Positions 16,176 through 34,871 of a DNA stretch of 64,000 bases are shown here, one piece after another. A program made the translations under genes and the position numbers. The stretch lies in NCBI RefSeq assembly GCF_003334255.1, contig NZ_QOWU01000002.1; one strand, 5' to 3'. Origin of the DNA: Escherichia coli. GTDB lineage: Bacteria > Pseudomonadota > Gammaproteobacteria > Enterobacterales > Enterobacteriaceae. Within the stretch, counting starts at the first letter, position 1. The number at the start of each line of letters is the position of its first letter. The notes below the pieces were generated by a model. That model was not told the origin of the DNA and ran no database searches. It worked only from the letters and a program-made list of their open reading frames with translations.

Positions 16176-17036
16176 ATGAGTCAGGCGCTAAAAAATTTAC
16201 TGACATTGTTAAATCTGGAAAAAATTGAGGAAGGACTCTTTCGCGGCCAGAGTGAAGATTTAGGTTTACGCCAGGTGTTTGGCGGCCAGGTCGTGGGTCA
16301 GGCCTTGTATGCTGCAAAAGAGACCGTCCCTGAAGAGCGGCTGGTACATTCGTTTCACAGCTACTTTCTTCGCCCTGGCGATAGTAAGAAGCCGATTATT
16401 TATGATGTCGAAACGCTGCGTGACGGTAACAGCTTCAGCGCCCGCCGGGTTGCTGCTATTCAAAACGGCAAACCGATTTTTTATATGACTGCCTCTTTCC
16501 AGGCACCAGAAGCGGGTTTCGAACATCAAAAAACAATGCCGTCCGCGCCAGCGCCTGATGGCCTACCTTCGGAAACGCAAATCGCCCAATCGCTGGCGCA
16601 CCTGCTGCCGCCAGTGCTGAAAGATAAATTCATCTGCGATCGTCCGCTGGAAGTCCGTCCGGTGGAGTTTCATAACCCACTGAAAGGTCACGTCGCAGAA
16701 CCACATCGTCAGGTGTGGATCCGCGCAAATGGTAGCGTGCCGGATGACCTGCGCGTTCATCAGTATCTGCTCGGTTACGCTTCTGATCTTAACTTCCTGC
16801 CGGTAGCTCTACAGCCGCACGGCATCGGTTTTCTCGAACCGGGGATTCAGATTGCCACCATTGACCATTCCATGTGGTTCCATCGCCCGTTTAATTTGAA
16901 TGAATGGCTGCTGTATAGCGTGGAGAGCACCTCGGCGTCCAGCGCACGTGGCTTTGTGCGCGGTGAGTTTTATACCCAAGACGGCGTACTGGTTGCCTCG
17001 ACCGTTCAGGAAGGGGTGATGCGTAATCACAATTAA
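16176..17036 (+). CDS. tesB: Acyl-CoA thioesterase II
   Basis: 286-aa protein starting [16 protein letters not shown]; matches TesB. Confidence 0.93.
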
Positions 17037-17043
17037 AAAAATA

Positions 17044-17076
17044 GCCGGAGGTGAAAACCGTCCGGCTGTTTTTTGC
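17044..17076. terminator. Bidirectional intrinsic terminator between convergent tesB and amtB
   Basis: Hairpin GCCGGAGGTGAAAACCGTCCGGC flanked by an A-run upstream and T-run downstream, so it reads as hairpin plus U-tract on both strands. Confidence 0.75.
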
Positions 17077-17084
17077 AGTGCTTG

Positions 17085-18371
17085 TTACGCGTTATAGGCA
17101 TTCTCGCCGTGGCTGTTGACATCCAGCCCTTCTCGCTCCTGCTCTTCCGGTACACGCAGACCAACCGTCAGATCCGCCAATTTGTAGCCGATAAATGCCA
17201 CAACACCGGACCAGACGATCGTAATGGCGATGCTTTCCAGCTGTACCAGCAACTGATGGCCCATCGTCACACCTTCAGCGAAGCCCACGCCGCCCAGCGA
17301 GCTGGCGGCAAAAATCCCGGTCATGATACAGCCGACAATGCCACAAACGCCGTGCACACCGAAGACATCGCAGGGATCATCCACCCGCAGCAAGCGTTTG
17401 AGCATGGTAACGCCCCACAAGCCCGCCAGACCAGCTACCACGCCGATAATCAACGCGCCGCCAACCCCAATGTAGCCGCAGGCTGGCGTCACGCCGACCA
17501 GACCGGCAATCGCGCCAGAACACGCCCCCAGCAGTGAAGGCTTACCACGCAGCGCCCATTCACCGAAGATCCAGCCAAGAATTGCCGCCGCCGTTGCGAC
17601 CACAGTATTCACAAATGCCAGTGCCGCGATTTCATTCGCCGTGCCCGCTGACCCGGCGTTAAAGCCAAACCAACCGATATAGAGAATGGCAGTCCCGGTG
17701 AAGACCATCGGCAGGTTGTGCGGTTTAAACGCCTCTTTACCGAAGCCCACGCGTTTTCCTATCAGATACGCGCCCACCAGACCGGCGATTGCGGCGTTAA
17801 TGTGCACCACGGTGCCACCCGCGAAATCCAGCGCACCGTGAGAAGCCAGCAAACCACCGCCCCACACCATATGCGCAATCGGAATGTAAGAGAGCGTCAG
17901 CCATACCACCACGAAAATCAACACAGCTGAGAAGCGGATTCGTTCCGCCAGCGCCCCAACTATCAAGCCGACGGTAATGCAGGCAAACGATCCCTGAAAC
18001 GCCACGTGGATATACTGATAAATGCTGCCCATCACCGCCGTCAGTTCGATGTTTTTCAGCATCAACCAGTTAATGTTGCCGAAGAAGTTGTTGCCCTCAC
18101 CAAACGCCAGCGAGTAACCGTAAACCACCCAGAGAATACAGACCAGTGCAAATGTCACCGTCACCTGCGTCAGCATCGACAGCACGTTTTTGCCGCGAAT
18201 CAACCCACCGTAAAACAGGGCAATCCCCGGAATAGTCATAAACAGCACCAGCGCAGTACAAATCATCATAAACGCATTGTCGGCTTTATCGGCCACCGCA
18301 GGTGCAGCCATTACCAGTCCCGGAAGCATCGCCAGTGAAGCAAGCCCAGTTTTTATCGTCGCTATCTTCAT
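17085..18371 (-). CDS. amtB: Ammonium transporter AmtB
   Basis: 428-aa ORF; polytopic membrane protein matching AmtB. Confidence 0.95.
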   Translation of the reverse strand: MKIATIKTGLASLAMLPGLVMAAPAVADKADNAFMMICTALVLFMTIPGIALFYGGLIRGKNVLSMLTQVTVTFALVCILWVVYGYSLAFGEGNNFFGNINWLMLKNIELTAVMGSIYQYIHVAFQGSFACITVGLIVGALAERIRFSAVLIFVVVWLTLSYIPIAHMVWGGGLLASHGALDFAGGTVVHINAAIAGLVGAYLIGKRVGFGKEAFKPHNLPMVFTGTAILYIGWFGFNAGSAGTANEIAALAFVNTVVATAAAILGWIFGEWALRGKPSLLGACSGAIAGLVGVTPACGYIGVGGALIIGVVAGLAGLWGVTMLKRLLRVDDPCDVFGVHGVCGIVGCIMTGIFAASSLGGVGFAEGVTMGHQLLVQLESIAITIVWSGVVAFIGYKLADLTVGLRVPEEQEREGLDVNSHGENAYNA

Positions 18372-18400
18372 TTTTCGTTCCTGTTGCTGTGTGCCAGAGA

Positions 18401-18739
18401 TTACAGCGCCGCTTCGTCGGCTTCGCCGGTACGAATACGAATGACGCGTTGCAATTCAGCGACGAAGATTTTGCCGTCGCCAATTTTTCCGGTGTAAGCC
18501 GCCTTACTGACGATATCGATCACTTCATCGAGTTGGTCATCAGCAATCGCCACATCAATTTTTACTTTTGGCAGGAAATTGACGCTGTATTCCGCCCCCC
18601 GGTACAGCTCGGCATGCCCTTTCTGACGCCCGAAACCTTTCACTTCGGTGACGGTCAGGCCCTGAATACCAATGGAAGATAACGCTTCACGAACGTCTTC
18701 CAGCTTGAATGGTTTGATTATCACGGTCACCAGCTTCAT
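18401..18739 (-). CDS. glnK: Nitrogen regulatory protein P-II 2 (GlnK)
   Basis: 112-aa protein MKLVTVIIKPFKLEDVREAL...; ORF track extends 46 codons upstream; start fits the sigma-54 promoter position. Confidence 0.93.
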   Translation of the reverse strand: MKLVTVIIKPFKLEDVREALSSIGIQGLTVTEVKGFGRQKGHAELYRGAEYSVNFLPKVKIDVAIADDQLDEVIDIVSKAAYTGKIGDGKIFVAELQRVIRIRTGEADEAAL

Positions 18740-18790
18740 AGATCCCCTCCGGTCAGAATTCGGTAATGGTTCTGCTACACGAAGAAGGTA

Positions 18791-18808
18791 TTGCAAGCGG
18801 TGTGCCAG
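18791..18808 (-). promoter_or_regulatory. Sigma-54 (-24/-12) promoter of glnK-amtB
   Basis: Minus strand reads CTGGCACACCGCTTGCAAT, matching TGGCAC-N5-TTGCA, about 50 nt upstream of the glnK ATG. Confidence 0.8.
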
Positions 18809-18860
18809 AAATGAAAAACGAGAAAGAGAGCAGGAAGTTAAGAAGTTTGAAAATGAAAAC

Positions 18861-18877
18861 GCACTATGACAGTGCAC
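18861..18877. promoter_or_regulatory. NtrC-like binding palindrome upstream of the glnK promoter
   Basis: GCACTATGACAGTGCA has GCAC/GTGC half-sites at consensus NtrC spacing, about 60 bp upstream of the -24 element. Confidence 0.55.
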
Positions 18878-18919
18878 AGTGCGTTACATTTTTGCACCAA
18901 CGATGAAATATTGCGCTAT

Positions 18920-22466
<3,547 letters not shown>

Positions 22467-34768: not shown

Positions 34769-34839
34769 CATAACAATCTTTTGTTGTTACGCTAACACCG
34801 AAAGAGGCTTTTCGCACGGTTCCATGCAAAATTCATGAC

Positions 34840-34871
34840 AAAAAAAAGCCCACCACCTGGCGGTGACGGGC
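34840..34871 (-). terminator. Intrinsic terminator downstream of tig
   Basis: Minus strand GCCCGTCACCGCCAGGTGGTGGGC hairpin followed by TTTTTTTT, about 35 nt after the tig stop. Confidence 0.8.

Follow-up and report, generated by a model that had tools for sequence, protein, structure and literature searches.

The classic enhancer of the transcriptional activator NtrC is that of glnAp2, the sigma-54 promoter of glnALG. In E. coli K-12 it contains two strong dyads, 32 bp apart and each with one mismatch to the consensus, which lie 83 and 115 bp from the GG doublet of the promoter and are accompanied by low-affinity governor sites. To oligomerize, NtrC is usually considered to require at least two adjacent dimer sites.

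A second well-described system is glnKp, which drives the E. coli glnK-amtB operon under nitrogen control. It is described as exclusively dependent on NtrC phosphorylation and serves as a pure NtrC-activation reporter, with an NtrC-specific activity that rises 400-fold on passing from ammonium-rich to ammonium-starved conditions (PMC3870243). It was also proposed that glnK, together with nac, fires only above a threshold of NtrC (PMC3870243). In NtrC ChIP-seq of nitrogen-starved cells, glnK-amtB is peak 1, with 39.7-fold enrichment, and glnK mRNA, which is hard to detect once glnG has been deleted, returns on complementation (PMC4066584). In vitro, gSELEX placed both an RpoN holoenzyme peak and an NtrC peak in the spacer between mdlB and glnK (PMC8743547), and in synthetic circuits glnKp drives NtrC-dependent reporter expression (bioRxiv 10.1101/086108). 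Occupancy of the region by sigma-54 and NtrC and the dependence of glnK mRNA on glnG are thereby established in the literature.

The same promoter has a further published property. In transcripts that read through it from upstream, the gene that follows is silenced in an rpoN-independent manner. The effect is due to CT-rich anti-Shine-Dalgarno segments, chiefly a heptamer with its centre at -4 of glnKp, and was relieved when this heptamer was mutated (Levy, Amit and colleagues, bioRxiv 10.1101/086108).

Among the glnK promoters of other Proteobacteria, the Pseudomonas glnK-amtB loci compared here likewise have NtrC-type dyads and a sigma-54 element in front of the operon. They differ from the E. 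coli locus in that the -24/-12 element is ~200-225 nt from the ATG, two dyads are present, 33 bp apart, and the upstream gene is not mdlB.

The locus considered here lies in a window of 64,000 nucleotides of E. coli DNA, the window being the whole stretch that was analysed. Its segment 18300-19100 corresponds to NC_000913.3 472300-473100 of E. coli K-12 MG1655 on the reverse strand, with 0 mismatches in 801 bp; coordinates were converted by subtracting the window coordinate from 491337 to obtain that of K-12. The mdlB-glnK spacer therefore shows no difference from that of K-12 glnKp. A comparison over 50 kb shows 103 differences between the window and MG1655, and the source strain is thus a very close relative of MG1655, not necessarily MG1655 itself. 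Of the 5426 complete E. coli genomes compared, 5424 contain the spacer at an identity of at least 95%.

All genes of the locus are on the minus strand. The end of mdlB, with a stop codon at 18920..18922 (annotation and ORF list) that also closes the upstream mdlAB operon, is followed by a 180-bp spacer, glnK, a 29-bp spacer and amtB, and the RefSeq annotation of the locus names the same three genes. The glnK coding sequence (18401..18739, b0450) encodes PII-2, a protein of 112 residues. The ammonium transporter gene amtB (17085..18371, b0451) is co-transcribed with glnK, and its product matches the NCBIfam equivalog NF007947 with 880 bits.

The feature upstream of glnK is almost certainly glnKp, and no observation contradicts this assignment. 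The promoter is already known and well studied, and the elements that the initial annotation had picked out are the published ones. Nitrogen-limitation control of glnK-amtB, which the annotation had expected, is supported by the published sigma-54 and NtrC ChIP-seq, by gSELEX and by the glnG-dependent mRNA. The assignment has little weight as a discovery, glnKp being the standard E. coli reporter of NtrC activity. Its value is that of a positive control, in which the letters of the DNA sufficed to pick out a genuine sigma-54 promoter together with its enhancer and the correct start codon.

The core promoter for sigma-54 (RpoN) is the 17-mer CTGGCACACCGCTTGCA on the minus strand (18792..18808), recognized by its consensus match, its conservation and a published ChIP-seq motif. 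The motif of sigma-54 ChIP-seq peak OS03 is CTGGCACACCGCTTGCA, and its centre at U00096.2 471761 corresponds to window position 18800, the centre of the 17-mer (PMC4591121). The 16-mer TGGCACACCGCTTGCA at 18807..18792 reads TGGCAC-N5-TTGCA without mismatch, which confirms the annotated -24/-12 element. Its doublets, one helical turn plus two bases apart as is the rule for sigma-54 promoters, are GG at 18806-18805 (-25/-24) and GC at 18794-18793 (-13/-12). From the final base of TTGCA (18792) to the glnK ATG downstream the distance is 53 nt. In the 64-kb window glnKp is the only exact match to TGGCAC-N5-TTGCW (1 found, 0.11 expected); with one mismatch allowed, the number is no higher than chance (3 found, 3.66 expected).

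Transcription is predicted to start (+1) at 18781 on the minus strand, 42 nt upstream of the ATG, as judged from the -12 GC, sigma-54 transcripts being expected to begin about 12 nt downstream of this doublet. The position equals that in Table 1 of PMC4591121, where the glnK start is itself a prediction, with a distance of 42, set 19 bp downstream of the motif centre; according to the same table, the promoter is marked 'Predicted' in EcoCyc. The glnKp literature consulted on this point yielded no rpoN-dependence data for native glnK.

The conservation of these elements was followed in loci collected by a GlnK protein scan with one genome per species, which gave 79 loci, most of them retaining the glnK-amtB pairing. 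A sigma-54 element with at most one mismatch is present within 400 nt upstream in 35 of the 79 glnK-relative loci versus none of 78 control segments of the same size, and an NtrC dyad with at most one mismatch in 36 of 79 versus 1 of 78. The comparison within the Enterobacterales comprised 14 other loci with mdlB-glnK-amtB synteny (15 with E. coli), and the alignment nine Enterobacteriaceae. The sigma-54 element and an NtrC-type dyad further upstream are both present in all 14 other loci, the former with zero or one mismatch, in the same orientation and at -59 to -104 from the ATG.

It might be supposed that the sigma-54 motif is non-productive or a chance match, like many intragenic sites in E. 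coli, and that glnK is driven by another promoter. Many E. coli sigma-54 sites are indeed bound yet transcriptionally inactive (PMC4591121), and the start site of glnK is predicted, not mapped. However, a sigma-70 promoter scan of 18300-19100, which includes the spacer, revealed no sigma-70-like promoter. The requirement of glnK mRNA for glnG also points to glnKp, as NtrC is stated to activate sigma-54 promoters only, and so does the NtrC-dependent reporter expression from glnKp in synthetic circuits. Moreover, the position and orientation of the element are kept in all Enterobacterales examined. A non-productive motif is therefore extremely improbable.

The palindrome upstream of the core promoter is a strong dimer site for NtrC (NRI), identified by its near-consensus sequence, its conservation and its helical phasing. 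It is formed by the 17-mer TGCACTGTCATAGTGCG (18860..18876, centre at about -87), within which the core GCAC-N7-GTGC occupies 18875..18861. The initial annotation had rightly taken it for an NtrC-type site, but had counted a spacer of N8, its single error, which is corrected here to N7. The NtrC consensus TGCACY-N5-RGTGCA itself places N7 between GCAC and GTGC, and TGCACTGTCATAGTGCG differs from it at one base, which makes it as close a match as either of the two high-affinity glnAp2 dyads of the same genome. The distance from the dyad centre at 18868 to the first G of the GG doublet (18806) is 62 bp, not far from the approximately 60 bp that had been noted. With its centre at -87 the dyad is nearer to the promoter than the published typical enhancer distance of roughly 100-150 nt, but falls in the wider range of roughly 80-150 bp expected of NtrC enhancers, which keep to one helical face when they are close to the promoter. 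The 180-bp spacer contains no other NtrC-like site of the class with at most one mismatch.

In the 64-kb window the minimal GCAC-N7-GTGC is at chance level (2 found, 1.71 expected) and the 17-mer with at most one mismatch is weakly unusual (2 found, 0.66 expected). From the counts of the exact sigma-54 match and of the NtrC 17-mer, the co-occurrence of an exact sigma-54 element with an NtrC 17-mer within ~120 bp upstream is estimated at ~1e-4 chance cases per window. The case for the dyad thus rests on position and conservation, not on motif count. The published NtrC ChIP-seq interval (U00096.2 471741-471821, window 18820-18740; PMC4066584) lies over the core promoter and not over the dyad, an offset that is within the resolution of ChIP-seq, and does not pinpoint the dyad.

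In the alignment, the half-sites TGCAC and GTGCG are invariant in all nine Enterobacteriaceae, and the five central bases vary. Fixed half-sites around a variable centre are the pattern expected of a protein-binding site. Within E. coli, the -24/-12 element is unchanged in the five most divergent spacers sampled, as are the dyad and the hairpin described below. The polymorphisms of these spacers lie in the T-/CT-rich stretch that separates the two elements, in the part upstream of the conserved block, and at a single base of the anti-Shine-Dalgarno segment.

Measured from the dyad centre to the leading G of the GG doublet, the spacing takes discrete values among the Enterobacterales. E. coli and E. 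albertii have 62 bp, the shortest version seen, two Citrobacter have 72 bp, Superficieibacter has 93 bp, a Klebsiella-labelled genome and Photorhabdus have 105-106 bp, and the remaining seven have 115-117 bp. These values step by ~10.5-11 bp, with a best period of ~10.9 bp. The Rayleigh test, carried out on the eight distinct values, gives p ~0.005 at 10.5 bp, which is indicative rather than exact since the species are related.

The two strong dyads of K-12 glnAp2 are in the same phase as the glnK dyad, and the glnK enhancer therefore keeps the helical face of the classic NtrC enhancer. Together with sequence match and conservation, this phasing is established in the present analysis. The comparative addition to what is known of glnKp is that the enhancer stays on one face of the helix while its distance shifts by whole turns across the Enterobacterales. 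This whole-turn quantization goes beyond the published findings located and is a modest addition.

The likeness of glnKp to glnAp2 extends to the same consensus elements, NtrC dyads with one mismatch and the same helical face. The two differ in the arrangement of the enhancer: glnKp has a single strong dyad and at most a weak neighbour, in place of the two strong dyads and governor sites of glnAp2, and this dyad is nearer to its promoter (62 bp) than either dyad of glnAp2 (83 and 115 bp). One strong dyad at glnK versus two at glnAp2 fits the published threshold proposal for glnK and nac. Experiments by Atkinson et al. in 2002 are said to support this proposal for glnK.

Upstream of the dyad, the alignment revealed a conserved block, TGGTGCAAAAATGTAACGCA (18880..18899), in which TGGTGCA and AACGCA are kept in eight of the nine Enterobacteriaceae. 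TGGTGCA (18899..18893) is a perfect NtrC consensus half-site. The block includes a candidate second dyad, TGCAAAAATGTAACGCA (TGCAA-N7-ACGCA, 18896..18880), with a centre at about -107, 20 bp from that of the strong dyad, and three mismatches to the consensus, which make it a poor match. Judged by its letters, the block may be a weak second site for NtrC oligomerization; alternatively, it could represent the A-tract and the 5' arm of the hairpin described below.

The mechanism proposed for glnKp, the best supported one, is that of the textbooks. The complex of RNA polymerase and sigma-54 would sit at 18808..18792 as a closed complex that is unable to open alone. Under nitrogen limitation NtrB would phosphorylate NtrC, and NtrC-P would bind the 17-bp dyad at 18876..18860 (about -87), probably aided by the flanking block at 18899..18880, and form an ATPase oligomer. 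The oligomer would reach the polymerase by looping of ~60 bp of T-/CT-rich DNA, and ATP hydrolysis would open the promoter. Transcription starting near 18781 would produce an mRNA that has a leader of 42 nt, leaves the Shine-Dalgarno sequence of glnK (ATG at 18739) unmasked and continues into amtB. In this scheme we infer where exactly transcription starts, what the second site does and how the DNA loops. The IHF consensus WATCAA-N4-TTR, with at most one mismatch, is absent from 18808-18860, between the NtrC site and the promoter, and IHF-assisted looping is therefore not proposed.

The palindrome region can also be read as RNA. A terminator scan, folding and conservation all point to a hairpin, AACGCACTGTG-CACTGT-CATAGTGCGTT (18885..18858), directly followed by the T-run TTCATTTTCA, the whole spanning 18847..18885 on the minus strand. 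The stem has 11 bp, five of them G-C pairs, and begins 35 nt past the mdlB stop codon. The predicted fold of the 86-nt segment has an energy of -23 kcal/mol (z = -2.9 versus shuffled sequence), with -14.8 kcal/mol for the hairpin alone, and an A-run upstream is able to pair with the U-run. The hairpin is distinct from the NtrC dyad, as its 5' arm uses an additional GCAC at 18882..18879 and the two axes are 3.5 bp apart.

All nine Enterobacteriaceae have the dyad inside a hairpin of -13 to -19 kcal/mol that is followed by a T-run with 7-9 T in 10 positions. The remaining six Enterobacterales (Yersinia, Rahnella, Acerihabitans, Photorhabdus) retain the dyad but lack the T-run. In the hairpin alignment 92% of the pair cells are paired, and one pair is compensatory, from C-G to U-A, which is probably a single evolutionary event; its 3' change also shifts the NtrC site towards the consensus. 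The idea that Yersinia has an mdlB terminator of its own, directly behind the stop codon, was dropped, as the terminator scan found none in loci L011 or L013. An Rfam scan of 17000-21000 at a permissive threshold detected no known RNA family; the one sub-threshold match, Thr_leader, is outside the region.

These properties suggest that the palindrome region might have a dual use, acting both as the NtrC enhancer and as the intrinsic terminator of mdlAB, which would release polymerase before it reaches glnK. Such a reading adds to the explanation of the locus by glnKp and does not compete with it. It is favoured by the terminator scan match at 18885..18858 with its tail TTCATTTTCA, by a stable fold that is better than that of shuffled sequence, by the start of the hairpin 35 nt after the mdlB stop, by the second GCAC outside the dyad, by the capacity of the A-run to pair with the U-run, and by the retention of hairpin and T-run throughout the nine Enterobacteriaceae with the pairing described above. 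Each of the conserved parts could, however, serve the enhancer instead: the 5' arm and the A-run as the weak second NtrC site, and the T-run in DNA bending for looping. The compensatory change, probably one event, improves the NtrC match as well, and the six other Enterobacterales keep the dyad without the T-run. Neither mdlB nor glnK is listed in the Term-seq supplement of PMC7815308. Dual use is thus a serious possibility, although still a doubtful one.

The opposite view would be that the palindrome is a terminator of mdlB and nothing else, its likeness to an NtrC site being due to chance and NtrC acting from elsewhere. The chance frequency of the minimal GCAC-N7-GTGC in the window and a ChIP-seq interval that does not resolve the dyad are compatible with it. 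A hairpin, however, would tolerate compensated changes, whereas TGCAC and GTGCG are invariant in the nine Enterobacteriaceae, and in Yersinia, Rahnella, Acerihabitans and Photorhabdus the dyad has been kept in spite of the missing T-run. The dyad is also helically phased with the promoter, and the search of the 180-bp spacer for sites with at most one mismatch showed no other NtrC-like site. This view is therefore very unlikely.

Between the -12 element and +1, the pyrimidine-rich segment CCTTCTTC (18781..18788, minus strand) is a predicted anti-Shine-Dalgarno, as suggested by folding and by the published mutagenesis. The CT-rich insulator of Levy, Amit and colleagues (bioRxiv 10.1101/086108) belongs to the same promoter, and in the native sequence its heptamer is CCTTCTT(C), at 18788..18781. 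Folding gives the glnK Shine-Dalgarno (18750..18744) a predicted probability of being unpaired of 0.37-0.46 in RNA that begins at 18781 versus 0.01-0.03 in read-through RNA. CCTTCTTC is therefore predicted to mask the glnK Shine-Dalgarno only in transcripts that read through from upstream. For 13 of the 15 Enterobacterales spacers the prediction goes in the same direction, although the effect is often weak. While the insulator study tested synthetic reporter constructs, the present calculation concerns the native glnK Shine-Dalgarno in mdlB read-through RNA and is a folding prediction. It provides in silico support for the published insulator mechanism and is not new.

Taken with this segment, the hairpin leads to a more tentative proposal than dual use as such. 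In the Enterobacteriaceae, an element of ~45 bp would work as NtrC enhancer in the DNA and as mdlAB terminator in the RNA, and would form a two-layer barrier together with the anti-Shine-Dalgarno. If true, the barrier would keep a tightly nitrogen-gated operon silent even with its promoter only ~115 bp from the upstream gene. NtrC, when bound, and the terminator may also affect one another. That the enhancer overlaps a conserved terminator-like hairpin in the Enterobacteriaceae goes beyond the published findings located and is a modest addition; if confirmed, the overlap would illustrate in a small space how regulatory DNA can be shared.

The Shine-Dalgarno sequence of glnK itself, GGAGGGG at 18744..18750 on the minus strand, was recognized by reading of the sequence 4 nt upstream of the ATG (18739..18737) and is conserved across the spacers of the Enterobacteriaceae. 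The ORF list contains a longer frame of 158 residues from a GTG at 18877, which adjoins the NtrC site and is upstream of the sigma-54 promoter. The choice of the shorter start at 18739 in the initial annotation was right, as PII homology, gene annotation and the Shine-Dalgarno all agree. The homology begins at residue 47 of the long frame: the NCBIfam equivalog NF007946 (GlnK) matches with 235 bits versus a cut-off of 181, its profile positions 1-112 corresponding to residues 47-158, and residues 1-112 of the E. coli GlnK structures (112 aa, PDB codes 1gnk and 2gnk) align to the same stretch. The GTG at 18877 is thereby ruled out as the glnK start. The GlnK protein encoded from 18739 is identical in sequence to that of PDB 1gnk.

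By published ChIP-seq, the site upstream of clpP is a second sigma-54-bound site within the window, besides glnKp, the sigma-54 promoter of glnK-amtB. The motif of the sigma-54 ChIP-seq peak OS02, TTGTCATGAATTTTGCA, reported 154 nt upstream of clpP (PMC4591121), is present as an exact match on the minus strand at 34825-34841, and was missed by the scan with the sigma-54 consensus because it carries GT, not GG, at -24. Two motifs with one mismatch to the consensus lie on the plus strand, in sense orientation within genes: TGGCACGTTGTTTGAA (51876-51891) in dxs and TGGCACCACCCTTACA (58770-58785) in yajI. The number of such one-mismatch motifs in the window is at the level expected by chance.

The spacer between glnK and amtB contains on the minus strand, 4 nt past the glnK stop codon, the 9-mer CTGGCACAC (18389-18397), which is identical to the -24 half of glnKp. 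The TTGC is absent from the -12 position downstream of it, where AACAG is found instead, and thus CTGGCACAC is ruled out as a sigma-54 promoter. Among the fetched glnK loci, TGGCACACAG of the same spacer is retained in E. albertii, Citrobacter and Superficieibacter, and is degraded in the other Enterobacterales.

The region between the convergent genes amtB and tesB gave a weak match to the Rfam family Thr_leader on the plus strand (17000-17075), with a score of 24.6 bits versus the gathering score of 55 and an E value of 0.16. The match is no genuine leader, and probably originates from a terminator-like hairpin between the two genes.

The 17-mer TGCACCCACTAAATGCA (56782-56798), located at the 3' end of ribD immediately upstream of ribE, is besides the glnK dyad the sole match in the window to the NtrC consensus with at most one mismatch. 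An in vitro NtrC gSELEX peak has been reported in the ribD>ribE spacer (PMC8743547), and the distance between TGCACCCACTAAATGCA and this peak is ~100 bp. No sigma-54 element was seen adjoining TGCACCCACTAAATGCA.

In the glnK loci of Pseudomonas and Stutzerimonas (L018-L046; about -200 to -350 relative to the ATG), the sigma-54 element is placed ~200-225 nt upstream of glnK, which implies a long leader. These loci contain two NtrC dyads 33 bp apart, and the architecture is nearer to that of glnAp2 than to that of E. coli glnKp.

The mechanical ORF of mdlB (18920-20815, minus strand), 631 aa long from a GTG, is over-extended in the same way as the longer ORF of glnK. The annotated MdlB has 593 aa and starts with MRSFSQLW at K-12 position 470636 (20701 in the window), with an 8-nt overlap with the end of mdlA.

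An IS1 in the glnK 5' leader was found in one of 5424 E. coli genomes, that of the isolate NZ_OZ040756.1 (L090, positions 1769/1770 and 2530 of the locus). Its insertion point corresponds to ~18754 in the window, between glnKp and the glnK Shine-Dalgarno sequence, with CGAATTCTG repeated on either side, and in this isolate glnK-amtB should be uncoupled from glnKp. In E. coli DH1Ec169 (NZ_CP012127.1, 471075-471760; match H13 of the spacer search), the 183-bp mdlB-glnK spacer matches as two pieces across 686 bp, and therefore ~500 bp are inserted in it.
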